Part shown: in pieces, positions 13,374-51,613 of the stretch | How positions within the stretch are numbered: position 1 is the stretch's first letter | Layout: every line of letters begins with the position of its first letter | Source of the DNA: Candidatus Bipolaricaulota bacterium | GTDB taxonomy: Bacteria; Patescibacteriota; Patescibacteriia; UBA11705; DATKZF01 | Reading direction: 5' to 3' | Length of the DNA stretch: 64,000 nucleotides | NCBI GenBank assembly: GCA_035528115.1 | Contig: DATKZF010000003.1 | Location: forward strand, 487,089 to 551,088 | Program-made: the position numbers and the translations under genes | The notes under the pieces: generated by a model | Databases searched by the model: none | What the model was told of the DNA's origin: nothing | What the model saw: the letters and a program-made list of their open reading frames with translations, nothing else

Positions 13374-14354
13374 ATGGAAAACGAACAATACGATGTCATA
13401 ATAATCGGCGCGGGCGCGGCCGGTCTGACCGCGGCGATTTACGCGGGCAGAAGAGAGCTGAAAACCCTTGTTTTGACCAAAGACATCGGCGGCCAAGCCG
13501 CGATTACCGATGAGATTGAAAATTGGCCGGGAGAGATGTCCATTTTGGGCCCGGCGCTGATGGAGAAAATTAAAAACCAGGCTGAAAAATGGGGAGCTAA
13601 AATTGAATTTGACGAAGTTTCGAAAATAGAAAAAACCGGAGAATTTTTCACCGTTAAAACCGGCAGAGGAGAATTTTTAGGAACCGCGGTGATCCTGTGT
13701 TTTGGTTTGTCTCATCGGCGGCTGGGTATTCCCGGAGAAAAGGAGTTTGTCGGTAAGGGAGTGTCTTTTTGCGCCACCTGCGACGGCCCGCTTTTTCGAA
13801 ACAAGACGGTGGCCATAGCCGGCGGCGGCAATTCCGCCTTGGACGCGGCCGAATATTTGGCCAGGTTGGCGGAGAAGGTTTACATTATCATCAGAAAGGA
13901 CAGCTTCAGTGAGCGAGCGGAAACCGTCGCGGCTGACACAATCGCTGAATTGGAAAAACAAGGTAAAATCGAAATGAGATGGAATACGGACGTCAAAGAA
14001 ATCAAGGGCGATAAAACGGTCAAATCAATCATGCTTGAAAATACCAAGAGCGGCCAAGTCGAAGAACTGCCGATCAATGGAATATTCGTGGAGGTCGGCA
14101 TGATCCCGCAGACAAAGGCCATTGAAGGTTTGGTTGATTTGGACGAGCGCGGTCAGATTGTCATTGACCAAGCTTGCCAAACCAGCGCGCCCGGCATTTT
14201 CGCGGCCGGCGACGTCACCTGCAGTCCATACAAACAACTGGTTACTTCAGCGGGAGAAGGCGCCAAAGCGGCTTTGTCCGCTTACGCTTATTTGCGAAAG
14301 GCCAAAGGCGGACATGAGGGATCGTTGAGGGATTATAAGATGAAGAAAAAATAG
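13374..14354 (+). CDS. trxB: Thioredoxin-disulfide reductase
   Basis: FAD motif GAGAAGLTAA, redox-active CATCDGP, NAD(P) motif GGGNSA. It lies 3 nt after trxA, so the two form an operon. Confidence 0.9.
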   Translation: MENEQYDVIIIGAGAAGLTAAIYAGRRELKTLVLTKDIGGQAAITDEIENWPGEMSILGPALMEKIKNQAEKWGAKIEFDEVSKIEKTGEFFTVKTGRGEFLGTAVILCFGLSHRRLGIPGEKEFVGKGVSFCATCDGPLFRNKTVAIAGGGNSALDAAEYLARLAEKVYIIIRKDSFSERAETVAADTIAELEKQGKIEMRWNTDVKEIKGDKTVKSIMLENTKSGQVEELPINGIFVEVGMIPQTKAIEGLVDLDERGQIVIDQACQTSAPGIFAAGDVTCSPYKQLVTSAGEGAKAALSAYAYLRKAKGGHEGSLRDYKMKKK

Positions 14355-14417
14355 AGGTCATGGAAATACGGATGATTACGAGTTATATGGCATTATAAAA
14401 ACACCTAATTCACTATT

Positions 14418-21336: not shown

Positions 21337-21394
21337 GGAACCGCCATGCAGAGACGCGTCATGGCGCGTCTCTGCATGGCGGTTCTTTGTTTTC
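21337..21394 (+). terminator. Long perfect hairpin GGAACCGCCATGCAGAGACGCG-tcatgg-CGCGTCTCTGCATGGCGGTTC plus T-rich tail (AGAGACGCG family)
   Basis: 22-bp stem; a second short hairpin AAAAACGGTTTTT/AAAAACCGTTTTT precedes it at 21307-21333. Confidence 0.75.
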
Positions 21395-22977: not shown

Positions 22978-23135
22978 ATGTCCGGGAATCGTCTTTGGCG
23001 ATCCCCGGAATTGACGCGCGCCGAATTTGCGATTTCGGTAAAGGCCGCAGTGAAAGATTCCTTTCCCGCCCCCTTTCAGTGCCGGTACTTGGAACCTTTC
23101 GGGCACCAGATCGGTTGGGGTTTTAGCCCTGGTGG

Positions 23136-23408
23136 CTACCGGTTTTTGAATGCCAGCAGCACGCACAACCAATAGACGATCGCCACGCGCTTTGCGATTT
23201 CGCGTTTGCGGATGTCCATGGCGGTCCTTTCCCAGCCTCCGCCGGACAAGCCGGCGCTGCCCGCTCTAAAGCCGCCCTTGGGCGACGACTCGGCGGCCAC
23301 GTAGCGGGAGAGAGATTGTCTCTCCGGCGTACCGGTTAAGGCCTCCTTTCCGGCTTCGGTTGTGCGATTGGCAACTTTGCCCGGCACAACGGATTTTTCT
23401 GGGTCCAT
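23136..23408 (-). CDS. Hypothetical GC-rich small protein with a single C-terminal TM anchor
   Basis: RBS-like GAGGG upstream of ATG (MDPEKS...); C-terminus KRVAIVYWLCVLLAFKNR is hydrophobic; high-GC3 codons. Coding status is uncertain. Confidence 0.25.
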   Translation of the reverse strand: MDPEKSVVPGKVANRTTEAGKEALTGTPERQSLSRYVAAESSPKGGFRAGSAGLSGGGWERTAMDIRKREIAKRVAIVYWLCVLLAFKNR

Positions 23409-23586
23409 TCCTAGACCCTCAGGACCTCGGAGCTCACTTGAATCCTCCTGTCGATCTGGGCGCACGTGTCTGTATTATTATAACATAAAAAAGCGTAAAA
23501 ATTCGCAAAAAAATGCTCATTGGGAGTTGTTTTTATTTTTGGAGTAATTGCGGTATAATGTTTGTGCTAAAAACTTTCTGAATATT

Positions 23587-24678
23587 ATGAAAATAGCGCT
23601 TATTCACGACAATTTGGTGCAGGAAGGCGGAGCTGAAAAGGTGCTGGCCGCCTTGTGCGAGATGTTTCCGGAAAGTCCGGTTTTTACCTTGGTACATAAT
23701 AAAAATAAGACTCAGTCTTTTTGGGGCAATAAAGAAATCAGGACGTCTTTTCTTCAAAAATTGCCTTTTGGCGTCAGCAAATTTCAATGGTTTTTAATGT
23801 GGATGCCCGCGGCTACGGAAAAGCACGATTTGAGCGAGTTTGATTTGATCATCTCCAGCTGTTCGGATTTCGCCAAGGGCGTCATTACCAAGCCGACCGC
23901 CAAGCACATCTGTTATTGCCACACGCCCACCAGGTATTTGTGGATTGAAAGCCAGAAATACGTGGACACTTTGAGAAAAAATAGCTTGGTGAAAAAATTC
24001 CTGCCCATTGCCTTGAGCAAATTGCGCTTATGGGACAGAATGGCCGCTGACAGAGTGGATGTCTTCGTGGCCAATTCCAATGTGGTCGCGCAAAGAATAA
24101 AAAAATATTACGGACAAGACAGTCGAGTTATTTTTCCTCCGGTGGAAACCTCCAAATTTTTCATCAGCTCTCGGCCCAAAAAATATTTTTTGGCCGGTGG
24201 CCGGTTGGTGCCGTACAAAAGGTTTGACTTGGCCATTACCGCGTTCAATCGACTCAATATGCCGCTGAAAATATTCGGCGACGGTTCGGAAAAAAAGAAT
24301 TTGATGAAACTGGCCAAAAACAACATTGAATTTTTAGGTAAAGTTTCGGATTCTAAAAAGGCTGAACTTTTCGCGGACAGCAAAGCGTTCATCAATCCGC
24401 AGGAAGAAGATTTCGGCATCACCAGCATCGAGGCCATGGCCAGCGGCCGTCCAGTAATCGCTTTTCGAGCCGGCGGCGCGCTCGACACGGTCATTGACAA
24501 TGAAACCGGAATTTTTTTCGACAGGCAAAATTGGGAAGATCTCGCTTATCGCGTCCTGAGCTTTGACGAAAAATCGTTTGACCCTGAAACGATCAGAGCG
24601 CACGCTCAAAATTTCGATTTGGAAATATTCAGGAATAAAATGAAAGAATTGATTTCCAGCCAGCCGCTAATGGATTAA
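23587..24678 (+). CDS. GT4-family glycosyltransferase (glycosyl transferases group 1)
   Basis: N-terminal MKIALIHDNLVQEGGAEKV and a C-terminal GT4 donor-binding region (FGITSIEAMASGRPVIA). Confidence 0.85.
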   Translation: MKIALIHDNLVQEGGAEKVLAALCEMFPESPVFTLVHNKNKTQSFWGNKEIRTSFLQKLPFGVSKFQWFLMWMPAATEKHDLSEFDLIISSCSDFAKGVITKPTAKHICYCHTPTRYLWIESQKYVDTLRKNSLVKKFLPIALSKLRLWDRMAADRVDVFVANSNVVAQRIKKYYGQDSRVIFPPVETSKFFISSRPKKYFLAGGRLVPYKRFDLAITAFNRLNMPLKIFGDGSEKKNLMKLAKNNIEFLGKVSDSKKAELFADSKAFINPQEEDFGITSIEAMASGRPVIAFRAGGALDTVIDNETGIFFDRQNWEDLAYRVLSFDEKSFDPETIRAHAQNFDLEIFRNKMKELISSQPLMD

Positions 24679-24687
24679 CGATCCGAT

Positions 24688-25824
24688 ATGAAAAACATCG
24701 CCATCGACGTTCGGTGCCTCCTGGAGGAGCGGCTGACCGGCGTCGGAGAATACACTTTTAATCTTTTAAAGTCGATTTTCGATATTGATCGCAATAATCA
24801 ATATTTTTTATTTTACAATCAAAGCGAGCCGTTTTTGGGGCATATTAAAAAGCTGGAAGCTGAAAACGTCACGCTCTGCGGATTCAAGATTCCCAATAAA
24901 TTTTTGAATTTGTCGCTAGGGGTGTTCGGCCGGCCTTTTTTGGATTCGCTGGTCGAGACTCAATGCAAGACTAAAATTCATCAGTTTTTTTTCCCCAACA
25001 TCAATTTTTTGTCGGTATCCCCGCTATGCAAATATATGGTCACTTGCCATGATTTATCTTTTGAAATTTTTCCGTATTTTTTTTCAACCAGACAAAAATT
25101 ATGGCACAAGGCGGTCAGGCCAAAAAGAATCTTCGAGCGCGCGGAAAAAATAATTTCGGTTTCCGCCAACACTAAAAAAGATTTGATTCAAGAATACAAT
25201 TTGAACCCCAATAAAATAGAGGTTATTCATTCGGGCATTGATATTAATTTGGACAAGTCAAAAAACGGAGAAATAAAAAGAAAATACGATTTGCCCGAGC
25301 GCTACATTTTGAGCTTGGGCACTCTGGAGCCCAGAAAGAATATTGAAACGCTCATCCAAGCGTTTGCCATGCTCAAAAAGCAAACCGAGGCGCCTCACAA
25401 ATTGATTATCGCCGGCGGCAAAGGCTGGAAGTACAAAAAGATTTTCGAGCTGGCCGCGAAAACAGATTTGGCCAAAGATATAATTTTTATCGGCTACATT
25501 CCGGCGTCGGACAAACCCAATATTTTGGCGCTGGCCGATGTTTTCGTTTATCCGTCTTTTTACGAAGGTTTCGGTTTTCCGCCCATTGAAGCCATGGCTT
25601 CGAGATGTCCGGTTATTTCCAGCCATGTGGCCTCGTTGCCGGAAATTTGCGAGAACGCGGCGCTGTTGATCGATCCTTACAGCATAGTGGATTTGTTTTT
25701 CGCCATGAAGGAAGTTTTGCGAGACAAAAATTTGAGAGTCAGTCTGATCGGCAAAGGGTTCGTGCAATCTTCGAAATTTTCGTGGCCGGAAGCGGCGGAG
25801 AAATTTTTAAAATTGATAAATTAA
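24688..25824 (+). CDS. GT4-family glycosyltransferase
   Basis: EGFGFPPIEAMASRCPVISS donor-binding motif; GT-B fold pattern. Confidence 0.85.
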   Translation: MKNIAIDVRCLLEERLTGVGEYTFNLLKSIFDIDRNNQYFLFYNQSEPFLGHIKKLEAENVTLCGFKIPNKFLNLSLGVFGRPFLDSLVETQCKTKIHQFFFPNINFLSVSPLCKYMVTCHDLSFEIFPYFFSTRQKLWHKAVRPKRIFERAEKIISVSANTKKDLIQEYNLNPNKIEVIHSGIDINLDKSKNGEIKRKYDLPERYILSLGTLEPRKNIETLIQAFAMLKKQTEAPHKLIIAGGKGWKYKKIFELAAKTDLAKDIIFIGYIPASDKPNILALADVFVYPSFYEGFGFPPIEAMASRCPVISSHVASLPEICENAALLIDPYSIVDLFFAMKEVLRDKNLRVSLIGKGFVQSSKFSWPEAAEKFLKLIN

Positions 25825-26130
25825 TGCTACGGATAGTTAATTCTAATAGGACAAGCTATGTTTGGGTGTAATCGTTTGCTACGGATATGAACTTCCAAAT
25901 AGCTTGGCTATGCGAATAAATTTAAAATAGCGACAGCATGGCTGAAGCTATTGTCGCGGGCGCTCGGCCTGCGCGGCGATGCGCGCGAATTCTTCGTATG
26001 TGTTGAATCCCATGACGACCATGCGGTGGTAAGTATCGCCGTTGTCGTCCGCGTCAGCGAAGATGTGCGGAGATGAGTCCGGCGTGATTCGTTCTACCCA
26101 CGCCTGAGATCCGCCAGGGAATGACTGAAT

Positions 26131-26322
26131 TCAGGTTTGCGCGGCATGAGCGTTCTCCTTGCCGTTGGCCAGGGCGTTGTATTTGTTGATGCCCATGATA
26201 ACAGCCACTTCGCGGCCGTTTTCGCAGATGAAGCTGATGGGCGCTTCCGGTCGGCAGTGTTGGGGGAGCCTCTCCCGCAACTTGTCGATCGGAGTTCTGT
26301 CTCGGATAATGTCGCTTGGCAT
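26131..26322 (-). CDS. Phd/YefM-family type II antitoxin-like protein (62 aa) in a GC-rich islet
   Basis: AAGGAGG RBS 5 nt upstream; APISFICENGREVAVIMGINKYNAL matches the Phd/YefM beta-strand/helix core (ITRxGKPVAVLxSxEEYExL). Confidence 0.5.
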   Translation of the reverse strand: MPSDIIRDRTPIDKLRERLPQHCRPEAPISFICENGREVAVIMGINKYNALANGKENAHAAQT

Positions 26323-26379
26323 GGCGTCCTCCTTGGTTGATATGATAAAATTAGCATAGGACGGCGGGATTGACAAATT

Positions 26380-26604
26380 CATGGATCACATATCATGGAG
26401 CACATAGCACGTATCATGCCTGCCCGCCGTAGCTTAAGAGCGAAGGCGGGGATCACCTATCATGAAACAAAAGAACATGAGACGGAAAAACAGAGAAACA
26501 AGGCCGACGCTGTTGTCATCTCGACCGAAGCGGAGAGATCTTTTCCTAATTCTTCGGAATAGATTTCTCCATCCCCAATTTCTAATTTCCGGTTTCTTAT
26601 TACC
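26380..26604. repeat. Dispersed intergenic repeat, copy A, directly upstream of the GT4 gene at 26624
   Basis: Shares a roughly 110-nt core with 46322-46547 (CATGAAAC..AAGGCCGACGCTGTTGTCATCTCGACC..GAAGCGGAGAGATCTTTTCCTAATTCTTCGGAATAGATTTCTCC..TCCGGTTTC..ATTACC) and an ATCATGGATCAC head that also appears inverted at 40565-40612. Confidence 0.65.
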
Positions 26605-26623
26605 CATTATTGTTAAATAAATT

Positions 26624-27748
26624 ATGCGCATAGGCATTGACGCTCGAATGTACGGCAGTCAGCAGACCGGCATCGGCAATTACATTAAAAATCTGACCGA
26701 GGCGCTTTTTGAAATCGATCGAAAGAACGAATACGTTTTGTTTTTGAGAGAACCGCAATTTTCCGAATATCAAATCCCTTATGCGAACGTTAAAAAAGCC
26801 AAAGTCACCCCGCGTTGGTACGGTTATGGAGAACAGCTGATTTTGCCTTTTCAATTGATGAGGGAAAAAATCGATATCATCCATTTCCCGCATTTTAATT
26901 CTCCGCTTTTTTATTTCAAACCGTCCGTGGTCACCATTCATGATGTGACCCCTTATCACTTCCCGGGACATCGCATGTCGTCATGGCTTCGGCGAGCCGG
27001 ATTTCGGCTGATTTTCAAGAATTCGGTCAAAAGAGCCCGCCAAGTCATCTGCGTGTCGCAAAGCACAAAAAACGATGTGATCAAGTATTTTCACGTTCCT
27101 GAGGATAAGCTGTTGGTAACTCACCTGGGGGTAAAAAAGCATTTTCGAAAAATTGAAAATCATGGTATAATAAATAAGTTGAAAGAAAAATACGGGATAA
27201 AAAAGCCCTTCATTTTTTACGTTGGCGTGTGGAGAAACCATAAAAATTTGCCGGGCCTGCTGAAAGCTTTTCAATTGCTTAAAACGCGATACAAATTGGA
27301 CTATCAATTGGTGCTGGGCGGCAATGAAGATCCTCATTATCCGGAGGTTCGCCAGACTTGGGAAAAATTGGGTCTGGCCAAGGACATTGTTTTGCCCGGA
27401 TTCATTCCGGAAAAGGAATTGCCTCTTTTTTACAATGCCGCGGCCGCTTATGTCATTCCTTCGTTCATCGAAGGATTCGGTCTGATCGGCATTGAAGCCA
27501 TGGCCTGCGGCGCGCCGGTCGTTTCTTCAAACACCAGCAGTTTGCCCGAAGTTTTGGGAGACGTGGCCGAATATTTCAATCCCGAAGACGAAAATGAAAT
27601 GGCGCGAAAAATATTCGAAGTTTTAACGGACAATGACAAGCGTTCAAAAATGGTTGCCAAAGGGTTTGAACAAATAAAAAAATATTCGTGGGAAGATTGC
27701 GCTCGAAAGACGCTGGACGTTTACGAACGGATTTATAAAAATAAATAA
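26624..27748 (+). CDS. GT4-family glycosyltransferase
   Basis: MRIGIDAR...GIGNY N-terminus and EGFGLIGIEAMACGAPVVSS. Confidence 0.85.
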   Translation: MRIGIDARMYGSQQTGIGNYIKNLTEALFEIDRKNEYVLFLREPQFSEYQIPYANVKKAKVTPRWYGYGEQLILPFQLMREKIDIIHFPHFNSPLFYFKPSVVTIHDVTPYHFPGHRMSSWLRRAGFRLIFKNSVKRARQVICVSQSTKNDVIKYFHVPEDKLLVTHLGVKKHFRKIENHGIINKLKEKYGIKKPFIFYVGVWRNHKNLPGLLKAFQLLKTRYKLDYQLVLGGNEDPHYPEVRQTWEKLGLAKDIVLPGFIPEKELPLFYNAAAAYVIPSFIEGFGLIGIEAMACGAPVVSSNTSSLPEVLGDVAEYFNPEDENEMARKIFEVLTDNDKRSKMVAKGFEQIKKYSWEDCARKTLDVYERIYKNK

Positions 27749-27750
27749 TT

Positions 27751-30273
27751 ATGGCAAAGTCGGCCAAAATAAAAAAAACAACCGGAGTCAAAAAAGCTAA
27801 AATAAAAAAACCGGTTGAAAAAGCTTCGGCCAAAAAAAATTCGGCGAAAAAAACGGTTAAGAAAAAAATCGCGGCCAAAACAAAACCGGTCAAATCCAAA
27901 AAAAGGGTTGTGACAAAAAAAAGGACTGTCTCGCCGATTAAAGCAAGCAAGCGGACAGAGCTGGCCAAAAAAGATTCGTCGAAAGAATTGGCCAAATTGA
28001 TCGCCGGCGAAGCGATGTCTGACATCGGCGCTGATTTTATTTTAAATAAAGCTTCTTTGGAGAAAAAAGACAGGCCGAATGTTTTCGTTTACAATAAACC
28101 TCAACCGAAAGTATCAGCGCATTTGCTTGATTTGAAAAACAGAATAGAAATTATCGAGGAAGAGACGGATTCTTTCACGATTTCTCGCGATACTTGCGAC
28201 GATTTCGCGCCGGTCAAATTATTAAAAGAAGAATTAAGCGAGCAATTCACCAAACCCAAGCTTTTCATTTTGCCGCTCGGCTGGGTAAAGGCTTTGGCCG
28301 GATTTATTGTTTTTTCATTGATCGTGGCCGGTCCCATTCAAGCTTTCGGCAATTATTATAAATTGAATAAAACTAAAGAAAGCGTGATCGGCTTGGCCAC
28401 GGGCGGTTTGAATGATCTGAAAACGGCTCAGGACAGCGCGGCCGGGAAAAATTTGGCGAAAGCGGGACAATATTTCAGTAGCGCCGGCGGCAATTTCAGT
28501 TCTGCAAAAGAGCAATTGGACGATATCAATGTTTTGCTCCAACCGATTTTGAAAATGATTCCCGTCGAAGGCAAGACTCTCGGAGACGCCGAGAATTTAT
28601 TGATCGTGGGAGAAAATTTATCGGTTTTGGGCCGATCGATCTCGGAAATATTCGATTTTTTTTACAATGACTCGTCGTCAATCACGGTAAAAATCGCCCG
28701 CATTAAGGAAGATAGCGCGAATCTTTTGCCGATCGCCGAGGAGACCGCGGAAAAAATAAAAAAAATAAATCCGAACGCGGTGCCGGAAGAAAACAAAGAA
28801 CAATTCGAACAGGCCAAAGAATTGATTGAAAAATTCGTCGCCGATTTGAAAACGATAGATTCATTATCCGATTTTTTGCTGGAAGTTCTCGGCGATTCGC
28901 AGAAAAAAAGATATTTGGTGGTTTTCCAAAACGATCGCGAGCTCAGACCGACCGGAGGATTTATAGGCAGTTACGCGATGGTGGACATATATCAAGGCGA
29001 AATTAAGAATATCGACATGCCCGGCGGCGGTTCGTATGATTTGCAAGGCGGCTTGCTGGAAAAAATCATCCCGCCAAAGCCCCTTTTATTGATCAATAAT
29101 CGTTGGGAATTTCAGGATTCGAATTGGTTTTTCGATTTTCCTTCTTCCGCGCGAAAAATGGCCTGGTTTTACGAAGCGGCCGGCGGACAGACCGTGGACG
29201 GAGTCATCGCGATCAACGCCGGATTGATCGAGGAATTATTGGCGTATTTGCCGCCGATCGATTTATCGGAATATGGCAAATCAATCAATGCCGACAATTT
29301 TATTGACGAGATTCAAAAATCAGTGGAACTCGAATACGATCGGTCGATAAACAGGCCAAAGCAGATTTTGTCCGACATGGCGCCGAAATTTCTTGAAGCC
29401 ATTTTTGAGGCCAAAGAAAATAATTTGATGAACATCGCTCAAACCTTGAACCGGAGTTTCGCGAAAAAGGACATCATGATGTATTTGGACGATCCCGAGA
29501 TGGAAACGGCGGTCATGGATTACAATTGGGCGGGCGAGGTAAAGGAAACGTCCATGGATTATCTGGCCGTGGTGGCCGCCAATATCGGCGGTCAGAAAAC
29601 CGACGGGGCGATCAAACAAGACATGGAATTGGTTTCGTCAATCGACAATCGCGGATTCATTATCAATCATTTGACCGTTAAAAGACGCCATAACGGCTCG
29701 CCGGACAATGTTTTTGAGAACGCGACCAACAGAGTGTATTTGAAAATTTACGTGCCTCAGGGCAGTCAAATCATTAATTCCTCAGGTTTTTCCAAAATTG
29801 ATGCCGGAGAATTTTTTCCATTGGCCGCGGGCGCGAAGCAAGACGAGTTTTTGTCCGATGAAGAAAGATTGATCGGCGTGGACAAATTATCCGGCTTGCA
29901 AATTTACGAAGAAGAAGGCAAAACCGTGTTCGCTGATTGGGTGGAAACTAAAGTCGGCGAGGAGTCGCAAATTGAAATTTCGTACATGCTGCCTTGGCAA
30001 TTAACCATGCCGGAAAAGTCCGAGGGCCTCGGCGCGATTTTCAATTCGCTTTTCAAAAAAGATCAAGAAGCGAATTATTATTCTTTGCTGATTCAAAAAC
30101 AATCGGGCGCGAAAAGCCGGCTCAGCGCTTCGGTGATATTGCCGGGCAAACAACAAATAACTTGGACATACCCTCAGGATTTTATTTTGGACGGTAAATC
30201 AAAAGGAACGTTAAACGCGGATCTGGACACCGATCAAATGATCGGTTTGGTATTCGAACCTCAAAAAAACTAA
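27751..30273 (+). CDS. Membrane-anchored DUF4012-family protein with an N-terminal lysine-rich histone-H1-like tail
   Basis: KKxxAKK repeats, one TM helix, then YLVVFQNDRELRPTGGFIGSYAMVDIYQGEIKNIDMPGGGSYD, which matches the DUF4012 signature. Confidence 0.7.
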   Translation: MAKSAKIKKTTGVKKAKIKKPVEKASAKKNSAKKTVKKKIAAKTKPVKSKKRVVTKKRTVSPIKASKRTELAKKDSSKELAKLIAGEAMSDIGADFILNKASLEKKDRPNVFVYNKPQPKVSAHLLDLKNRIEIIEEETDSFTISRDTCDDFAPVKLLKEELSEQFTKPKLFILPLGWVKALAGFIVFSLIVAGPIQAFGNYYKLNKTKESVIGLATGGLNDLKTAQDSAAGKNLAKAGQYFSSAGGNFSSAKEQLDDINVLLQPILKMIPVEGKTLGDAENLLIVGENLSVLGRSISEIFDFFYNDSSSITVKIARIKEDSANLLPIAEETAEKIKKINPNAVPEENKEQFEQAKELIEKFVADLKTIDSLSDFLLEVLGDSQKKRYLVVFQNDRELRPTGGFIGSYAMVDIYQGEIKNIDMPGGGSYDLQGGLLEKIIPPKPLLLINNRWEFQDSNWFFDFPSSARKMAWFYEAAGGQTVDGVIAINAGLIEELLAYLPPIDLSEYGKSINADNFIDEIQKSVELEYDRSINRPKQILSDMAPKFLEAIFEAKENNLMNIAQTLNRSFAKKDIMMYLDDPEMETAVMDYNWAGEVKETSMDYLAVVAANIGGQKTDGAIKQDMELVSSIDNRGFIINHLTVKRRHNGSPDNVFENATNRVYLKIYVPQGSQIINSSGFSKIDAGEFFPLAAGAKQDEFLSDEERLIGVDKLSGLQIYEEEGKTVFADWVETKVGEESQIEISYMLPWQLTMPEKSEGLGAIFNSLFKKDQEANYYSLLIQKQSGAKSRLSASVILPGKQQITWTYPQDFILDGKSKGTLNADLDTDQMIGLVFEPQKN

Positions 30274-30276
30274 ATT

Positions 30277-32289
30277 ATGATCGATAAAAAATCGTACAAT
30301 CAAGAAGAAAAAAAAGACAAAGGCAAAGAAGCCGTTGAGTCGGCCGATAAATCGGGAAGATTCAGCAGAAAAGAAAAAAAACAGTCTAAAAAAAGGCATG
30401 GGTTCAGTTTTTTTTCCAAACCTTCGAAAGCCATTGAATCGATAGCCTCGATTTACAAGCAAACGGACGAATTGTTTAAAAATAATGCGCCGATTGACGG
30501 TGAGGTTAAGGAAGAAGAGCAAATCCTGGCGCAGATCATGGAAAAAAGAAAAATCAGAAGGAAAAGAATGATAATTTTTTCGGCATTGTGCGGATTGGCT
30601 ATTATCGCCGGAGCCAGCGTGTTCGGATTTTTCGTTTTCAACAAGCGCCAGCAATTTTCCGAAGATAAAATAAATATTGAAATTCTCGGTCCGTCCGAGG
30701 CGATTATCGGCCAGGAAATTTCATATCTGATTAATTATGAAAATAAAGGAAATATTGATATCGATGACGTCAATGTTTTTATCAAATTGCCCCAGGGTTT
30801 TGATTTGATCGAAAAAATACCTGAGACCGATGGCACCAATTGGCATTTTGACAAATTGAAAGTGGGGGAATCCGGGCAAATAAAATTAACGGGTAAGCTT
30901 ATTGATCGAGCTGATTCCGAACAAAAAATGGCCGTGACTTTGAGCTATCAGCCGGAGAATTTCAGCTCCGAATTTTCCACGGGTGAAAATTTTTACACCC
31001 AGCTTCTGCCCGCGGAAATAGACACTGAGGTTTCCAGTCCGGAAACGGCCGCGCCCGGGCAAAAAATCAATTTGGTTATTTCTTATCAAAACAATTCGGA
31101 GAACGATTACGATAAATTCATTTTGAAACTATCGGCGCCGGCTGATTTTCAAATGCTGTCCAGTCAGCCCCAGGCGACGAATAACGAATGGCTGATAGAA
31201 AACATCGGCGCCGAATCGGACAAGCAAGAAATATCGGTCGAGGGCAAATTCGGCGAAGACTTGAATTTGGCCGAAGTCGAAATTGAGCAAAAATTTTCTT
31301 TGCAGGTTTTGTATCCGGGCAAGCTCGATAATAAGTTTTTGCAAAAAGAAGAGGGATTTTCCATCAGGCTTTCGGATGAAGAAATTTTCACCTATTTGAT
31401 CATCAACGGCAAAACGGAAAACAGCAACACTTGTTTCGGCAATGATTTAACCGGCAGTATTATTTTCAAAAACACGGGCGATAAGTCATTTGAAAATTTG
31501 ACCGCGAAATTGATCATCGAGCAATCACCCGTGGACGTGCTGGATTGGCAAAATTCCAATTTCGCCGGCGGCGTTAAGGCGAATATCGAAAACGGCAAAG
31601 AAATAAAATGGAGCCTTTCCGGCTTGCAGGCCAACAGCGAAAAAGTCATTGATTTTAAAATCCCGGTGGCCAAGCTGAGCGCTTTGAGCGATTTTTCAAA
31701 TGACAGTCTTTCCGCGCAAAAGCTTAAATTCCATTCGACCCTGTCCTTTCCGGATGAAGCTCGAACAATCGACAGCTCAGCGCTCGAAATAGGTTTGAAC
31801 AGCGATTTGAAATTGGGCATCAAGGCTTTGTATTATGACGCCGAGGGCAATGCCTTGGGCTCAGGGCCTCTGCCGCCGCAAGCCAATAAGAAGACGGAAT
31901 ATGTGATTTATTGGGATATTTCAAACAATTTGCATGAAATAACGGACATAAAAGTCAAAACAAAATTGGCCGAGAAAGTCAGCTGGGTGGGCGAGCAAAA
32001 AATTGGCGTCGGACAAATGAATTTTAACGCGGACACAGGTGAAGTGGTTTGGGAAATAAACCGGTTGCCCAAAAATATCAATGAGTCCCACGCCAATTTC
32101 AGAATCGGCTTGCGACCGCTTTCGGAAGACATCAGCAAGCTGATGAAATTGACCGAGACGACCACCATTGAAGCCAAGGACGCGGTGACCGGGGAAACGA
32201 TCGTCATGTCGCTTAATCCGATCACCAGCAATTTGGAATTCGATGACAAGGGCAAGGAAAAGGGAGTGGTGATACAAGAAATAGAATAA
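30277..32289 (+). CDS. Membrane-anchored surface protein with DUF11-type conserved repeat domains
   Basis: Basic N-terminus, TM helix, and repeated segments resembling DUF11/TIGR01451 (GQEISYLINYENKGNIDIDDVNV..LPQGF; GQKINLVISYQNNSEND). Confidence 0.5.
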   Translation: MIDKKSYNQEEKKDKGKEAVESADKSGRFSRKEKKQSKKRHGFSFFSKPSKAIESIASIYKQTDELFKNNAPIDGEVKEEEQILAQIMEKRKIRRKRMIIFSALCGLAIIAGASVFGFFVFNKRQQFSEDKINIEILGPSEAIIGQEISYLINYENKGNIDIDDVNVFIKLPQGFDLIEKIPETDGTNWHFDKLKVGESGQIKLTGKLIDRADSEQKMAVTLSYQPENFSSEFSTGENFYTQLLPAEIDTEVSSPETAAPGQKINLVISYQNNSENDYDKFILKLSAPADFQMLSSQPQATNNEWLIENIGAESDKQEISVEGKFGEDLNLAEVEIEQKFSLQVLYPGKLDNKFLQKEEGFSIRLSDEEIFTYLIINGKTENSNTCFGNDLTGSIIFKNTGDKSFENLTAKLIIEQSPVDVLDWQNSNFAGGVKANIENGKEIKWSLSGLQANSEKVIDFKIPVAKLSALSDFSNDSLSAQKLKFHSTLSFPDEARTIDSSALEIGLNSDLKLGIKALYYDAEGNALGSGPLPPQANKKTEYVIYWDISNNLHEITDIKVKTKLAEKVSWVGEQKIGVGQMNFNADTGEVVWEINRLPKNINESHANFRIGLRPLSEDISKLMKLTETTTIEAKDAVTGETIVMSLNPITSNLEFDDKGKEKGVVIQEIE

Positions 32290-32326
32290 CGCAAAATAAA
32301 TTCCAAGTTCCAAATATCAAATGTAT

Positions 32327-32359
32327 TAAAATAGCGGAAAGCTTGTCTTTTCGCTATTT
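32327..32359 (+). terminator. ATAGCGGAAAG-cttgtc-TTTTCGCTAT hairpin plus T run (AGCGGAAAG family)
   Basis: Imperfect stem located after the 30277-32289 gene. Confidence 0.5.
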
Positions 32360-32591
32360 TATGATAATTGTTTTTTTACTTCCAATTTGGTTTGCCTGCG
32401 ATTGTATGTTTTTTTGCTGGCTATCTTTTTCGTCGGCCGATGCAAAACGCCGGATTTTTTGCGGGTTTTTCGGCGAAGGCTTTTGATTTTTTCTCCGGGA
32501 GAATCGTAAATTTTAACAATGATTTTCTTTTTCATAAAATTTTTTGTTTTGTTGAATTAATTATATCATGAATTTATTTTCGGCGCGCGGG

Positions 32592-32644
32592 CGTCCGGGG
32601 GCGGCCGCCCTCGGACGTAGAGACGCGCCATGGCGCGTCTCTAC
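32592..32644. repeat. Two consecutive GC-rich hairpins: CGTCCG..CGGACG and GTAGAGACGCGCC-atgg-CGCGTCTCTAC (AGAGACGCG family)
   Basis: The second hairpin is nearly identical to those at 21352 and 51584. Confidence 0.6.
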
Positions 32645-33752
32645 AACGCGCGTTCGCGCGTTCGTCCGCGCGCCAAATCAAAAAGCGGCCATGAAAGCCG
32701 CTTTTAGATTAGCATCAACCTGCCATTTTACCCGATCAAGATGCTGTTGCCAAAAAACTGGATAGTTGGAGAGAGATTTAAAGAACATCTATCTCGTTTT
32801 TGGCAAACAGTATGCTGACAGGGTAAATCGCTCGCGAATCCTACCCGAATTTAACTATACGATGTATGACTTATTACTTGTAACTTCAAATCGTTAATTA
32901 AATTCGGGTAGGCGGGAAAAACTAGTTTGTTTTTCCCACCGGCTTCACCACTTACGGTAGGTTACACCGCCTTGCTTTGCTGGCGAGGCTGACGAGGGCC
33001 GGACACACGTATGCCCGGGAGCGGTTATTAACGGATCTCTCCGTCACTCCAGAGAAAGGCTACACCCCAAGGATTACTCCCCGAAAGGTTCACCAGCCCG
33101 TTGGAGCCAACCGCTGCGCAAAGTCCCCCGGATGGACAATCAGCGCTGTCGCGCCTTCTTCACGTCGGGCGCCCATCACGGTCATACCCAACGCTGCCTC
33201 ATTATGAGCATCTCTACTCCATCTCCTTGTAGATTGCCCTTGCCATGGAACCGGTCTTCGAAATTAGTGAAGACCGTCCCCCAAGTTTTTTATCTTGTTA
33301 CACAACTCCTATGGCCGGCCGTTTTTCAAATAGGTCCGGCTTGTTCGAAGCGTTGCAAGGGGTGGGGACTCTTCAGGGAGAGATCCCCTGTGGCGGATGA
33401 GCGATGGACCCTTTTTGGCGTTGGAGCTGAAAGCTCCTGGGTCCTGCGGTCGCGTGTCGCGCGACGCTTCATCCGCCGTTTCCGGTCCGGCCATCCTGAT
33501 GGCCGGCTAGCCTCGTTCTGGGCGCACCCGGCTAGCTGGGCGCGTTCTTTATGAGCACTGATACTCTCCTTTCTCGGTGATAAAGAATGAGCGCGCGCTC
33601 CCTTAGCCTATTTGGCCGAAGGAGCCGCCGTACGCGCTCAGCCAGCCTGAGTCTCCAAGTTAATCTTCGAAAATCAGGTTGGCCGGAGACGTCCTAGGTG
33701 AGGTTGTCTCCGATGGGGGAAAGAACGAGGAGGGGTGGGGTGGGGGAAAGGG

Positions 33753-34100
33753 TTACTTCTTCTTGCTCTTCTTGCCCTTCTCCTTACGAGCCTGGGACTG
33801 CAGCCCGGTCTGGCCCGACTCGGAGCCCTTGCTCTGGAGTCGGATCTCGCGATCGTTGTCGGCCCGCGCCTTGCGCCGCGCCTCCTGGTCCGCCGGCCGT
33901 CCCTTGCGGACGCCGCCGGGGCGGTTGAATTCCATTTTTCGGCCCCCGCTCCAACTGCCCCAGGGGGAGCTGACGGAGGATCGTCGGTTGCACTCCTCGA
34001 TGCGCTTGAGCACGAGCGGTGGTGGCTCCACGGAGACGAGCACGCATTTCGTCTGGGTCGGGGTGGGATCGGATTCTTTCGTGATCGCAACCATGTTCAT
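33753..34100 (-). CDS. Hypothetical small basic protein (115 aa) with a lysine-rich C-terminus inside a GC-rich islet
   Basis: Strong AAGGAGGG RBS 5 nt upstream of ATG and a TTGACA -35-like element; the sequence is not low-complexity except for the KEKGKKSKKK tail. Confidence 0.35.
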   Translation of the reverse strand: MNMVAITKESDPTPTQTKCVLVSVEPPPLVLKRIEECNRRSSVSSPWGSWSGGRKMEFNRPGGVRKGRPADQEARRKARADNDREIRLQSKGSESGQTGLQSQARKEKGKKSKKK

Positions 34101-34939
34101 TCCCTCCTTGGGGTGGGGTGGTTGTGTGTCCCTGAAACTACGATGTAGATGAGCGTGCTAAAGAAAGATTTGAAGGGTCATATAAATTAATAATTACCCT
34201 TGTCTTTTTTAGCTTTCTCTCTCCTCTACATCCCGGTTTCAGCGACTCTTTAAGGAAAAAAATAGACAGAAAAGATTCTGCCAGATCGCGAATCACAGCT
34301 TCGCGATAGCCTTGAACGAAAATTATGCTTTGTTCAGGGCTTGGCTGACTCTCTCCCAAAAGTCCGCTTGGTTTTCAAAGTTTCATTGTGACTTGGTATT
34401 ATATCATAATTTAATGAATTTGTCAAGCGTGGACGTAAAAAGGATTCATATTTTATCTAAAATTACATAAATCAAGAAGGATTATTAAGAGATGGCTTGT
34501 TTCGTCTCGCGCATTTGGCGCTTCGACGACCCACTTTTTGACGCCAAAAAGTGGGCAACCTGCCTGCCGGCAGGCAGGAAAGCGCTGGGGGAAAATGATT
34601 CGTAAAGCGACAATTTAATGTTAACAATCTCGCGACGGCTCAGCATTTTCCCCCAGACCCCCGGTGCTATCCGCGCGTGATTCGTCGATATTAGGACTTT
34701 TGCCTTTTATCTGCCTCATTGTTTTACCAAGGTTCGATTTTAACCGGCCAAAGAGGCAGGTAGCCGGCTACCTGCTTTTGAGAAATTAAGGAACGCTGAG
34801 GAGACCCCTGACGAATGCAAGGGGACGACGAAGCGAACCGGACGTTAGTCCATAACCTGCCCCCCGACCTTTAAAATAAGCAATAAAAAGGGAGGGGGGA
34901 CAAGGGGGGAGGGTTAAAATTATGAGGTTTCATGGCATA

Positions 34940-34975
34940 AAAAAAGCCGCCCCATTCGGGGCGGCTTGAAATTGA
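34940..34975. terminator. Bidirectional hairpin AAGCCGCCCC-attc-GGGGCGGCTT flanked by A and T runs
   Basis: Lies directly 3' of the minus-strand sugar transferase gene. Confidence 0.65.
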
Positions 34976-34984
34976 CGTTTATTA

Positions 34985-36412
34985 TTAAATGGCCGATAAA
35001 CCTTTTAGCACCACCCATGGCGTTTTCAAGAAAATCCACAAATCAAGGCGATATGACCAATTTTCAATATAATAGATGTCCATTTTTGCTTCTTCGTCAA
35101 AGGGCAGATCCGATCGTCCGCTGATTTGAGCCAGACCCGTTAATCCGGGTTTTATATCCAAGGTTCGAGTTTGCTCCTGAGAATAATTGGCCACTTCTCG
35201 GGGCTGATGAGGACGCGGGCCGACCAGGCTCATGTTGCCGATCAGCACATTGAAAAATTGCGGCAATTCGTCAATGCTGAACTTTCTGATGAATTTGCCG
35301 ACCTTGGTCACTCGCGGATCTTTTTTGATTTTATACAACGCGCCCCGCGACGCCCGTTGTTCCTTGATCAATTTATTTTCATACTCAAGCGCCTTTTTTC
35401 CGGCCTTGGTATTTTCATCCGTGCTGAATTCATTGTACATGGATCTGAATTTGTAAACGAAAAATTTATTGCCGTATTGTCCGACCCTTTCATTTTTGTA
35501 AATTATCGGGCCGCGCGACGTGATTTTAATGGCCAGAGCTGTCAACAATAAAATGGGGGAAAGCAGTAGCAATAAAATGAATGAGAAAACAATGTCCGCG
35601 GTTCGCTTAATGATTTTTCTCCAGCCGTCGAGCGGAGTTTTTTTGATTTCAATCACGGGAATGCCTCCGATCATGTGGGATTCGATGTTCGTGGACCTGG
35701 CCTCAAAAGGGCCTGCCGCGTATTTGAAAACGATGTGATTGTATTTGGCGAAATTCAAAAGTTTGATGGAATCTTTTCTGGAAATGTTGGGATCGGATTG
35801 AATGATTTCGTCAATGAAATATTTTTTGTGCCATTCGACCAACTTGTCGAAGGCCGTCGAATCGATTTCTTTGATTTGTCCGATGATTTTGAGTCCGAGC
35901 GAAGATTCCTTGTTTATCGTGTCTTTGATCGTCTGGGTGTACGCGTTATAGCCTACCAGCACGACTTTGTTAGTGCCCCAGCCCGTTTTGTACAAATGAT
36001 TTTGAATCATTCTGATGATAAATCTGCCCAGCACGATATAGACAATGCTCAATATCCAGGCGGCCAGAACAATGAATCTGGATTCAAAGAGTTCTCGCAC
36101 GAAAAACATGTAAATGATAATGGCGGCCATGCCCGTGGAACAAGCCATGAAAATGCGCGCCAATTCATCGGTCAAGGTCGGTTTTTTGAAATTGTAAAGT
36201 CTGCTTATAAAGAAGAAAAGAATCCAGACGACGGAGACGACGAGCGCCGCGATAATGTATTTGTCAAAAGGCAAATCAAAAATTACCGGTCTTATCTCGG
36301 TAATTTCTTGCTTGAATCTTAAAAAATACGCGGTAATGGCGGCCAGCAACAATAAAATATAGTCTGTCGCCAACCTAATAAGGACGAAAATTAATTCGGA
36401 TTTTTTTATCAT
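34985..36412 (-). CDS. Polyprenyl-phosphate glycosyl-1-phosphate transferase (WbaP/CpsE-type bacterial sugar transferase)
   Basis: Four N-terminal TM helices; C-terminal catalytic domain with KFRSM and DELPQFFNVLIGNMSLVGPRP motifs. Confidence 0.85.
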   Translation of the reverse strand: MIKKSELIFVLIRLATDYILLLLAAITAYFLRFKQEITEIRPVIFDLPFDKYIIAALVVSVVWILFFFISRLYNFKKPTLTDELARIFMACSTGMAAIIIYMFFVRELFESRFIVLAAWILSIVYIVLGRFIIRMIQNHLYKTGWGTNKVVLVGYNAYTQTIKDTINKESSLGLKIIGQIKEIDSTAFDKLVEWHKKYFIDEIIQSDPNISRKDSIKLLNFAKYNHIVFKYAAGPFEARSTNIESHMIGGIPVIEIKKTPLDGWRKIIKRTADIVFSFILLLLLSPILLLTALAIKITSRGPIIYKNERVGQYGNKFFVYKFRSMYNEFSTDENTKAGKKALEYENKLIKEQRASRGALYKIKKDPRVTKVGKFIRKFSIDELPQFFNVLIGNMSLVGPRPHQPREVANYSQEQTRTLDIKPGLTGLAQISGRSDLPFDEEAKMDIYYIENWSYRLDLWIFLKTPWVVLKGLSAI

Positions 36413-37321
36413 AGCATGGGTTTTATTGGAAGATAAATGACTACTATCATTATGCCAGTTTTATCGGTGTCTGGCAATGTCATTTGGCTTCCAATGATCT
36501 AAATAAGCCTGTAAGCCGAATTCTGTGGCCTCCGCCAAGAATTCGAACGGCAGATTTTAGAACCTGTCGGCCGAAGCCTTGGCGAAGGTCGATGACCATC
36601 TATCTAGGTCCGACATTGCTGCCGGACTCAAGCGAGCTACCAAATTTGCTCTTGCACCTGATAGGGTTTACCACGCTTGGACGTTGCCGTCCAAGGAGAG
36701 AAGTATGATTTAAATGGTCACGTGAACAATTTAACTTTTTTTCTTCTCACTTTTCACCTTTGGCCGCGAAGCGGCCACCCTGAGTGAGGAGCAGTGCGAC
36801 GAATCGAAGGGTGTAGATGTATCCTTCGACTCGCTATGCTCGCTCAGGATAGTCGCTTCGCGACTAGTATAGTCTCTGTGGCACTGGCCGTCGGCCGAGT
36901 TTCTTTCGACCCTATCTCAGAAATAATTTTCTATTCAATTGGCGAATTTAGGCTGCAAATTGTTCAAAACTCGTCACCATAATAATCATATTATGCTTCT
37001 TCGTCTTTCACAATTTTCGCTCTAAATTCGCTCAATCTCATTACGAAACTTATGTCTGAGATAGGGTCTTGTTATCTCGGCATCGCCCGGACGTTATCCG
37101 GTATCATTTTTTATGGTGTTCGGACTTTCCTCCCTCCTTCGCTCCTTGCTGCGCTCGAGCTTCGAAGGGCAAGCCCTCTTAGTTTGCGAGGGGGGTTGCC
37201 GTTCTTGGCTTCAAACAAAGCAAGGAGCGAAGAAGAGCGGTCATCCGGCTTATTCAGATCAATGAAATTATAGCAAAAAAATGATGAAATGTCAATGGTA
37301 ATTTAAAAACCGCCAGCATGG

Positions 37322-38674
37322 CTAGCGGTTGAGGAAGTTACGAAAAGCGTCGGTCACGACCATCTGCTCGAGGCGCTCGCCACAAGTGATGATGCCAAGC
37401 TGCGCGTCCGGGAAGTGTGAGGTCGAGGAATTTGTGACTCCAAGCAGGAAGTCCTGCGCCTCGTCCGGCAGTTGACTGAAACTTCTGGCCGCGCCCGTCC
37501 CGCTTTTCCAGCCGTTGAAATTGACAACGTCGGGCTCGCACAGGTCCCAGTCAGCAATGCGAGCGGGCGGGTACGCGAAGCGCTCGCCGCGAAGTTGCCA
37601 GGTATCCACGACCGGGATTTTAGGTTGACTGTCGAGCACGTCCAGTTTCGTAAAGCACAGGAAGTTCGGCGCGCAGAGCCGAATTCCTTGTCGAAGGAGC
37701 GGGAGATTGAGCGGGCCGCAACGTCGAGGGCGTCCGGTGGTGACGCCGAATTCCGCGCCGCGTTGTCGCAGAGACTCTCCGGTGTCGGATTTGTCTTCGC
37801 CGGGAAAAGGCCCGCCGCCGACTCTGGTGGCGTAGAGCTTGGATACTCCGATCGTGAACGCGATGTCCATTATCGTCAATCCCGCTTGCGCGATCAGGCC
37901 GGCTGCGGTCGTTGATGACGAAGTGACGTACGGGTACGTCCCGAACAGCCGATCAAGCAGAGCTCCTTGGCCCGGTTCGATCAGGCCGATGTCGCCGTTG
38001 CGTTTGATTTCATCGATTACTCGTAAGGTGTCCGTGACGCGACCGCCCAGCTTTCGGACGGAGTCAATGACATTGTCCACTTCGCATTTTTCTTCGGGCC
38101 GGCCGCAGCCGCGCAAGATGGCGTTGGCGAGGTCGTACGCCAGCTTGAGCCTCTGTTCAGCTTTGTCGCCGCTCTCAAGCAGTTCAAAGAATGTCGGTCC
38201 GACCCGGAATGCCTGCATGGCGTAGGTCGGGCCGATGCCGCTGCCCGTGGTGCCGATACGGTCATTGCCCATGAGAATTTCGATGGCCGCTTCGACCGAA
38301 CGATAGATCGGCAAAACGACTTGAGCGCGACCGTCGATCAAGGTTGGCGAGACGTTGACTCCTTGGGCGCGCAGGTCCGTCATTTCTTTTTTCAGCGCGA
38401 CTGGGTCGATGACCATGCCAGCTGCCAAAATGGCCGTGATGTCGGGATCGAACACGGCCAGCGGCAGGTAATGGCTTTTTTGGAGTCGACCGAAGCTGTC
38501 TCTGTACGAATGGCCGGCATTGCCGCCGCCATTGGGCCGAATGGCCCATTTGATGCGCGGGTTGTGGCTCTGCTTCATCAGCTGAGCCAGACGCAGAGAG
38601 ACAGACCCTTTGCCGTTGTCTCCGAACGTCAAATCGGAGAGTAAAATGAACCTGCCGCGAAGATTAGGCATCAT
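37322..38674 (-). CDS. purA: Adenylosuccinate synthetase-family protein, divergent and GC-rich
   Basis: P-loop GDNGKGS (PurA GDEGKGK), GGGNAGHS (catalytic His), TTGSGIGPTY, YATRVGGGPFP, GVTTGRPRRCG, and the GTP-specificity motif TKLD. About 62% GC, in contrast to the AT-rich promoter TTGACT-17-TAAACT upstream. Confidence 0.8.
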   Translation of the reverse strand: MMPNLRGRFILLSDLTFGDNGKGSVSLRLAQLMKQSHNPRIKWAIRPNGGGNAGHSYRDSFGRLQKSHYLPLAVFDPDITAILAAGMVIDPVALKKEMTDLRAQGVNVSPTLIDGRAQVVLPIYRSVEAAIEILMGNDRIGTTGSGIGPTYAMQAFRVGPTFFELLESGDKAEQRLKLAYDLANAILRGCGRPEEKCEVDNVIDSVRKLGGRVTDTLRVIDEIKRNGDIGLIEPGQGALLDRLFGTYPYVTSSSTTAAGLIAQAGLTIMDIAFTIGVSKLYATRVGGGPFPGEDKSDTGESLRQRGAEFGVTTGRPRRCGPLNLPLLRQGIRLCAPNFLCFTKLDVLDSQPKIPVVDTWQLRGERFAYPPARIADWDLCEPDVVNFNGWKSGTGAARSFSQLPDEAQDFLLGVTNSSTSHFPDAQLGIITCGERLEQMVVTDAFRNFLNR

Positions 38675-38751
38675 GGCCTCTCTTTCTTTGTATGTCATTG
38701 CCCATGGAAAGTTTAGAAGCTTTGAGGAGAAAAGTCAATCATTGCGCAATT

Positions 38752-51552: not shown

Positions 51553-51613
51553 AAAACGACGAATGAAAATTCGTCGTTTTATTGTAGAGGCGCGCCGCGG
51601 CGCGTCTCTACAA
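51553..51613 (+). terminator. Two hairpins after porB: AAAACGACGAAT-gaaa-ATTCGTCGTTTT and GTAGAGGCGCGCC-gc-GGCGCGTCTCTAC (AGAGACGCG family)
   Basis: Both are perfect or near-perfect inverted repeats. Confidence 0.65.

Follow-up and report, generated by a model that had tools for sequence, protein, structure and literature searches.

A GC-rich non-coding stretch forms the tail of a predicted minus-strand transcription unit with a structured leader and a conserved 3' stem-loop

The subject of this analysis is a GC-rich stretch near the middle of a 64-kb window of a metagenome-assembled genome (MAG); the window is the whole stretch of DNA that was analysed, and positions are counted from its first letter. 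An earlier note, made from the letters alone, had proposed about 1.1 kb of non-coding DNA at 32650-33750 as a candidate large structured RNA. We identify this stretch as the 3' two-thirds of a previously undescribed minus-strand unit with a predicted transcript of ~1.7 kb. The transcript is predicted to run from 34392 to 32680 and comprises a 290-nt leader, an open reading frame (ORF) for a small basic protein, a tail of ~1.07 kb, a conserved stem-loop, and an intrinsic terminator. The GC-rich stretch is thus very probably transcribed on the minus strand, not as the free-standing gene that had been placed between terminators and the ORF, but as the tail of a unit that begins 640 nt upstream and includes the ORF. 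We favor the reading, with a probability of roughly 0.55, that it is the tail of a narrowly distributed unit, part mRNA and part structured RNA, that is selected for its RNA. The foldability of the interiors, the elevation of their GC content in all hosts, and the lack of any protein-level trace of cassette genes in the tail all argue for this reading.

The promoter of the unit (34426->34398, minus strand) matches the sigma-70 consensus at 12 of 12 positions, with TTGACA and TATAAT separated by a 17-nt spacer containing a TG, and sits 290 nt upstream of the small basic ORF. It is kept in the related loci L002, L003, L009, and L011 (CTTGACA..TATGNTATAATNC). At the 3' end, the intrinsic terminator (32710->32676, minus strand) is predicted as AAAAGCGGC-UUUCAUG-GCCGCUUUU followed by UGAUUU. 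This is the AAAGCGGC/GCCGCTTT hairpin (32676-32710) already recognized in the earlier note, and the homologous terminators covary (helix 4 of the 3' alignment). The hairpins at 32592-32644, previously taken for strong terminators, belong to neither strand in particular and lie outside the unit. They have no U-tract, and the palindrome GTAGAGACGCGCCATGGCGCGTCTCTAC (32617-32644) recurs at 21338-21385 and 51582-51613, in each case between genes, so that we regard them as GC-rich palindromes resembling repetitive extragenic palindromes (REP-like) and not as terminators. Breaks in a public Logan contig that covers this locus (L001) fall precisely on such palindromes.

Homologous loci were found in two ways, through the adjoining WbaP-like sugar transferase and by using the invariant 3' motif as a DNA pattern in metagenomes, where it is unique enough to retrieve them; one match of the motif scan, L005, was rejected as due to chance. 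Seven independent homologous units were obtained: L002 (=L006), L003, L004 (=L007), L008, L009, L010, and L011. In each locus the unit begins shortly downstream of the sugar transferase, and the genomes that carry it are Patescibacteria whose transferase is 68-74% identical to that of the window. In the nearest outgroup (L012 and L013, 58% transferase identity), the transferase is followed directly by a GT4 glycosyltransferase gene and the site is empty. The unit is restricted to a small clade of Falkowbacteria-like Patescibacteria, within the candidate phyla radiation (CPR). Its leader motif and its 3' motif are separated by 1.44 kb in the window and by 1.45 kb in L009, with a maximum of 4.45 kb in L008; like the window, L003, L008, L010, and L011 contain 0.9-1.7 kb without a credible ORF. 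In L010, the initiating sugar transferase is on one side of the unit and the genes GT4-GT4-GT4-DUF4012-DUF11 are on the other, all co-directional. Window positions 23548-32289 are inverted relative to L010 14333-21428, and the block of three GT4 genes, DUF4012, and DUF11 consequently converges on the 3' end of the unit.

The GC-rich non-coding stretch is real and beyond chance, with boundaries narrower than first drawn. The block covers only 32913-33752 (840 nt, 57.6% GC against ~45% in the host), while 32650-32912 consists of AT-rich hairpins and conserved elements outside it. Within the window, 32913-34120 stands out at 55-71% GC against an average of ~45%. Codon-position GC is flat across 32913-33752, with no periodicity, in contrast to the adjoining ORF (0.59/0.51/0.84 at codon positions 1, 2, and 3). 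On its sense strand we find no ribosome-binding site combined with a start codon and an ORF of at least 15 aa, and a Pfam search of the block returned no matches. The tail was also compared at the protein level with every gene of the homologous loci, with no match (nothing below E 0.7). The absence of a convincing ORF, as initially claimed, is thereby borne out, as is the view that the stretch is not recognizable decayed coding sequence. A scan for tRNA and tmRNA found none, blastn of the DNA gave no match in plasmid or phage collections, and phage, plasmid, and viral collections held no match for the DNA, the 3' motif, or the ORF. AGGAG, which resembles a Shine-Dalgarno (SD) sequence, is 2.7-fold enriched in the interiors and does not mark ORFs. 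An apparent internal triplication (CCCCACCCC at ~375-nt spacing) was discarded, as its units are not alignable above shuffles.

The first conserved module is the structured leader (34101-34392, minus strand). An alignment of eight loci (A6) backs five helices, with 91% of cells paired and 20 pairs changed on both sides, a result reached by 0 of 500 shuffles (5-8 in slid controls); these statistics, like those for the 3' end below, rest on only 7-8 related sequences and are supportive, not probabilities. The helices include P1 (34355-34347 with 34278-34270, GAGAGAGUC / GAUUCUCUC), P2 (34245-34221 with 34153-34129), and P4 and P5 (34208-34196 with 34178-34161). Two invariant GGAGAGAG motifs are located at 34356-34349 and 34224-34217. 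The leader also contains a terminator-like hairpin (34255-34282), GGCAGAA-UCUU-UUCUGUC followed by UAUUUUUUU. Across the loci of A6 its stem varies in sequence, but the loop GAUUCUCUC and the U-run are preserved. The loop and 3' arm of this hairpin (34282-34265) share positions with the 3' strand of P1 (34278-34270), suggesting that the two are alternative, attenuator-like pairings. The leader thus combines, in silico, a covarying structure with mutually exclusive terminator and anti-terminator pairings, as an attenuator does. A boxA-like sequence in the leader (AAUCUCUUUAGCA) was set aside because it is not conserved among the loci.

The second conserved module is a 3' stem-loop at 32730-32824 (minus strand), with an outer stem formed by 32824-32806 and 32748-32730 and inner stems formed by 32799-32796 with 32758-32755 and 32793-32786 with 32768-32761. 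Its loop reads AUGUUCUUUAAAUCUCUCUCCAA and is invariant, holding a boxA-like sequence, GUUCUUUAAAU (32786-32776), and the pyrimidine-rich CUCUCUCC (32775-32768). In an alignment of the stem-loop and terminator from seven loci (A5), pairing reaches 94% and 12 pairs have changed on both sides, which none of 500 shuffles equaled (2-4 in slid controls).

A third module, a double hairpin, follows the ORF at 33642-33712 (minus strand), with hairpin 1 formed by 33712-33705 and 33691-33684 and hairpin 2 by 33682-33666 and 33658-33642. It is found in six loci, following the first ORF in L002, L003, L004, L008 (where it occurs twice), and L009. Between loci, 12 of its 21 pairs are changed on both sides, and the window copy keeps both stems with a different sequence. 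The covariation called for by the earlier note is therefore present in the leader, the post-ORF hairpins, the 3' stem-loop, and the terminator, while the interior yields no alignment. To the extent that the note proposed a structured RNA, it was partly right: the stretch is unusually foldable, and among its hairpins are some that compensatory changes have preserved in relatives.

Between the double hairpin and the 3' stem-loop, the tail contains several further elements, all on the minus strand. The GC-rich interior at 32998-33641 is strongly foldable on the sense strand and aligns with no relative. Next to it lies a short module (32945-32997, GCCUCGCCAGCAAAGCAAGG...GUGGUGA) with 81% identity over 53 nt to L008 4209-4261; the match extends to several frames and both strands and is thus at the nucleotide level, not coding. 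It is followed by the hairpin GGCGGGAAAAAC / GTTTTTCCCACC (32911-32940), described previously as GGGAAAAAC/GTTTTTCCC and present as described, and by a long AT-rich hairpin at 32840-32912. The latter has 18 nt at 94% complementarity, or ~23 bp in the covariance-model alignment, with a loop of 26-37 nt, and accounts for the 14-bp long-range pair of the earlier note. That pair exists, with its first arm at 32840-32853 and not at 32833-32846 (a 7-nt error), and is a simple local hairpin. The ends GGGTAGG/CCTACCC recur at the equivalent place in L009, on a perfect palindrome that is otherwise different. Two peculiarities were seen in the interiors of relatives: in L003 (~14020-14090 and 14320-14410), two hairpins with loops of tandem heptamers (ATCATGG/AGCATGG, 5-7 copies) are flanked by inverted repeats CCCC(A/G)TAGT..ACTGCGGGG, and L009 contains a direct duplication of ~150 nt.

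On the minus strand, 32913-33752 folds with a minimum free energy (MFE) of -359.7 kcal/mol, corresponding to a z-score of -9.1 against shuffles, compared with -2.9 on the plus strand. When the 840-nt block is divided into halves, the z-scores are -6.5 and -3.0 in sense and -2.4 and -1.95 in antisense orientation. As controls from the window, three GC-rich coding genes gave +1.4 to -4.0, the RNase P RNA gave -13.3, and the small basic ORF itself gave ~0 to +1. The same pattern is observed in all eight loci, where every segment of the non-coding interiors folds better than its shuffles (sense z -3.0 to -11.6; coding controls +2.2 to -1.7) and the sense z is at or below the antisense z in 16 of 18 segments. 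Selection for G-U-containing helices in the transcript would be expected to give such a sense-strand bias. In 8 of 8 loci the interior is richer in GC than its host (33-48% GC), the average difference being 10 points, and the elevation holds in the hosts of 33-37% GC too. In the cassette genes of relatives, GC at the third codon position (GC3) is far above that of host genes.

The small basic ORF (33753-34094, minus strand) encodes 113 aa, or 115 aa if its start is at 34100 (ORF115). A strong ribosome-binding site, AAGGAGGG (34109-34102), and the marked third-position GC, a coding periodicity, suggest that it is, or recently was, translated. Searches of 5.8 and 1.8 billion proteins returned no homologue besides itself, the sole other match of ORF115 (P0002) being repeat-driven and spurious, and no Pfam, PHROGs, PADLOC, or NCBIfam family was assigned. 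The AlphaFold2 model has low confidence (predicted local distance difference test score 58). Perfect 11-bp complementarity between the ribosome-binding site of ORF115 and 33063-33073 was dismissed, as 17% of shuffled queries equal it and it is absent in the five relatives tested. Five relatives have in common another small basic protein, which carries a zinc knuckle at its N-terminus along with the motif GGAPxTGL; the family is limited to those five. Its model shows the zinc knuckle and long helices, with only E>2 matches to small zinc fingers in Foldseek. The ORF of the window holds the same position and is not detectably related to it. Some relatives carry further orphan genes, in families of ~65 aa, 105 aa, and 281 aa. 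Two orphan cassette proteins, encoded at L004 7718-8035 and 8161-9006 and also in L002, L003, and L008, are both absent from the unit of the window; they have weak matches to chromate-resistance-associated rhodanese-type models (ChrE, E 0.0018; ChrB_C, E 0.0023).

Under the favored reading, the whole molecule would be a hybrid of mRNA and structured RNA whose interior is kept GC-rich and folded by selection on RNA shape or stability instead of sequence. The leader pairing GAGAGAG/UUCUCUC may compete with the leader terminator and so decide whether the long form is made. The pyrimidine-rich 3' loop CUCUCUCC is complementary to the two invariant GGAGAGAG motifs of the leader, and might pair with these or with GGAGAGAG or SD-like sequences of a target. 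GGAGAGAG occurs five times in the window against 0.76 expected, three of them within the unit, with both strands counted. The layout recalls RNAIII of Staphylococcus aureus, in which a small ORF and a long multi-hairpin 3' domain share one transcript, the pyrimidine-rich loops of hairpins complement SD-like sequences rich in purines, and the 5' and 3' regions can pair. The unit shares this layout without sequence or structural homology to RNAIII. Its tail, moreover, is twice as long and hypervariable, and its pairing is suggested only by invariant complementary motifs.

Several observations weigh against the favored reading. The transcript is a prediction from sequence, and a good MFE z-score is in itself weak evidence of function. 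Independent relatives number only seven, and with related sequences a comparison against shuffles makes results look more significant than they are. No relative offers an alignment for ~640 nt of the tail, leaving the fold there without covariation support; as this portion is unconserved even among the closest relatives, the covariation backs the end modules and not one large ornate fold. The proposed pairing of GGAGAGAG with CUCUCUCC lies beyond a covariation test because both motifs are invariant.

The boxA-like 11-mer of the 3' loop is also double-edged. The boxA consensus is GYTCTTTAANA (PMC5725501), and 32786-32776 reads GTTCTTTAAAT, matching it at 10 of 11 positions, with a difference at the last. 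The motif GUUCUUUAAAU likewise matches the functionally tested boxA of a Legionella CRISPR leader, GTTCTTTAAAA, at 10 of 11 positions (PMC7862264). Relatives have the variants GTTCCTTAAAT, GTTCTTTAAAC, and GTTCTTTACAT, with changes at positions 5, 9, or 11, and the 11-mer is single-stranded in a conserved loop of ~17-23 nt. Elements of the boxA type typically precede long non-coding RNAs (PMC7862264). The 3' loop motif may recruit NusB/NusE. As at the boxA sites of rRNA operons and CRISPR leaders, the promoter is strong, and the transcript, being long and untranslated, would be exposed to Rho and in need of protection. Yet known boxA sites act at the 5' end, in the leader, whereas this motif belongs to the 3' end, with ~65 nt between it and the terminator. 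The GYTCTTTAA core is also not enriched in the window (two found against 1.7 expected), and for these two reasons the motif remains only a lead.

The chromosomal setting invites comparison with RNA elements that promote read-through inside polysaccharide gene clusters, such as the Bacillus EAR RNA and ops/JUMPStart. As with these elements, the unit of L010 lies inside a glycosyltransferase cluster, on the same strand as the flanking genes. It differs from them in lacking an Rfam match and in having both a promoter and a terminator to itself; a separate promoter serves the downstream genes. The inversion in the window has parted the unit from the cluster genes, and the element is intact nonetheless.

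The strongest competing explanation, which we consider somewhat unlikely, is that only the conserved ends are functional and that the GC-rich interior is neutral filler, consisting of acquired GC-rich DNA or decayed genes. The interior cannot be aligned between relatives, the unit varies from 1.4 to 4.5 kb in length, and relatives carry real genes (of the 105-aa, 281-aa, and ~65-aa families) where the window has only RNA, so that the interior could be dispensable. Other GC-rich patches of the genome (purA and 23000-23460) further suggest gene transfer and hence foreign DNA. In the tail, however, the comparison with the cassette genes of the homologous loci shows no protein-level trace of any of them, and codon periodicity is absent. 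Neutral DNA should drift toward AT, especially in hosts of 33-37% GC, while the interiors are GC-elevated in all eight hosts. The fold z-scores of the interiors are also strongly negative and sense-biased, and the other GC-rich non-coding block of the window is unstructured (z -1.2, -1.9). A related and quite improbable alternative is an insertion hotspot, in which a fixed promoter-leader and end element form a cassette platform with mobile cargo captured between them, either integron-like or of another site-specific mobile type, and the tail represents non-coding cargo. The conserved AT-rich ends around a variable GC-rich middle, the empty outgroup site, and the structured element after individual ORFs (twice in L008), which is reminiscent of attC sites, would agree with such a platform. 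Against it, the annotated syntenic neighborhoods contain no integrase, transposase, or recombinase, no noteworthy terminal repeats or target duplications were found, and the phage, plasmid, and viral collections gave no match. The first ORF family and several modules are also inherited together across loci, and although post-ORF hairpins are present, attC features could not be established for them.

It is very improbable that the unit belongs, as a diverged member, to one of the known classes of large RNA (OLE, GOLLD, ROOL, HEARO, group I or II introns, or other ribozymes), despite its size, its GC excess over the host, and its dense hairpins. The Rfam comparison proposed for such families (OLE, GOLLD, ROOL, HEARO, raiA, and introns) was run with Rfam 15 and matched none of them: at gathering scores, the only family in the whole window is RNase P RNA, and up to E=10 the region 32000-34800 gives only chance-level hairpins (RsmW, 32 bits against a cut-off of 52; mir-6536; Hammerhead_1, E 9.3). 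The relatives L003, L004, and L008 gave no Rfam match either. Neither an OLE/GOLLD/ROOL-like class nor a degraded intron or ribozyme, the two identities first suggested, is thus sustained, and no intron model matches up to E=10. A group I or group II intron is further rejected because the unit comes with a promoter and terminator of its own and splits no gene, the empty site of the outgroup being an intergenic gap. The unit does resemble OLE, GOLLD, and ROOL in having hundreds of ORF-less nucleotides, GC content above that of the host, dense predicted structure, a narrow range, and its own promoter and terminator (here predicted). It differs from them in being co-transcribed with a protein gene, in a sequence mostly unconserved among relatives, in covariation limited to the end modules, and in being known from ~8 genomes. 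We give equally little credence to a translated tail, be it through small ORFs or through a reassigned stop codon. One plus-strand frame is open over 197 codons of the tail, or 266 with TGA as a sense codon, but its GC at codon positions 1, 2, and 3 is flat (0.55/0.58/0.59) and it has no Pfam match. Host genes are intact under the standard code and the sense strand lacks initiation signals, as described above, and both an alternative code and small ORFs were accordingly rejected.

In a bolder version of the favored reading, which we regard as unlikely on present evidence, the unit would represent a new class of modular RNA of very large size (1.7 to 4.8 kb), specific to one lineage of episymbiotic CPR bacteria and acting, strongly transcribed and Rho-protected, as a ribonucleoprotein scaffold. 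Such a unit would encode its own small basic partner protein (a zinc ribbon in most members). Synthesis and long-range pairing would be under the control of the conserved leader and the boxA-like end loop, and the structured interior would diversify rapidly under selection for shape, not sequence. To our knowledge, almost nothing is known about regulatory or structural RNAs of Patescibacteria, whose tiny genomes have little spare DNA. Here, a small clade reserves 1.7 to 4.8 kb for a predicted transcript that is mostly untranslated, GC-enriched, and strongly folding, has three covariation-supported modules and orphan proteins, and stands under one of the best promoters of the region. If functional, the unit would represent a new large-RNA locus. 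Its leader and its 3' stem-loop would add two new motifs, compact and well defined, that are directly open to searches and tests, and the unit would exemplify an RNA that keeps its ends while its structured core turns over. Should the interior prove to be filler, the motifs of the leader and the 3' end would still be new candidates for cis-regulatory elements.

Several features of the surroundings complete the description of the locus. Between the sugar transferase and the promoter of the unit lies an ORF-less gap of 545 nt (34440-34985) with three perfect or near-perfect palindromes (34530-34555, 34559-34578, and 34756-34775); L003 and L010 have a PDDEXK_3 (GxxExxY) gene in its place. Just downstream of the terminator, a very Lys/Arg-rich ORF of 58 aa (32359-32535, minus strand) belongs to no NCBIfam or PADLOC family. 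The RNase P RNA (bacterial class A; 36496-37181, minus strand) is 686 nt long against a 367-nt model, with insertions of ~186, 80, 50, and 36 nt. Its counterparts measure 642 nt in L003 (9180-9821) and 469 nt in L004 (3362-3830), showing that the insertion content varies within the clade. The source MAG is labeled 'Candidatus Bipolaricaulota' by NCBI, which is probably a taxonomic misassignment: the close relatives of its sugar transferase all belong to Patescibacteria or Falkowbacteria, and a gene content with DUF4012, DUF11, and an insertion-bearing RNase P RNA is in keeping with CPR. The second GC-rich (59%), ORF-less stretch of the window, at 23000-23460, is situated upstream of a glycosyltransferase operon and is not unusually foldable. 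Finally, the adenylosuccinate synthetase gene (purA; 37322-38698, minus strand) has ~60% GC and a GC3 of 0.70 in a genome of 45% GC. It is only 54% identical to the L002 orthologue, compared with 65-80% for neighboring genes, and may be a xenologous replacement.

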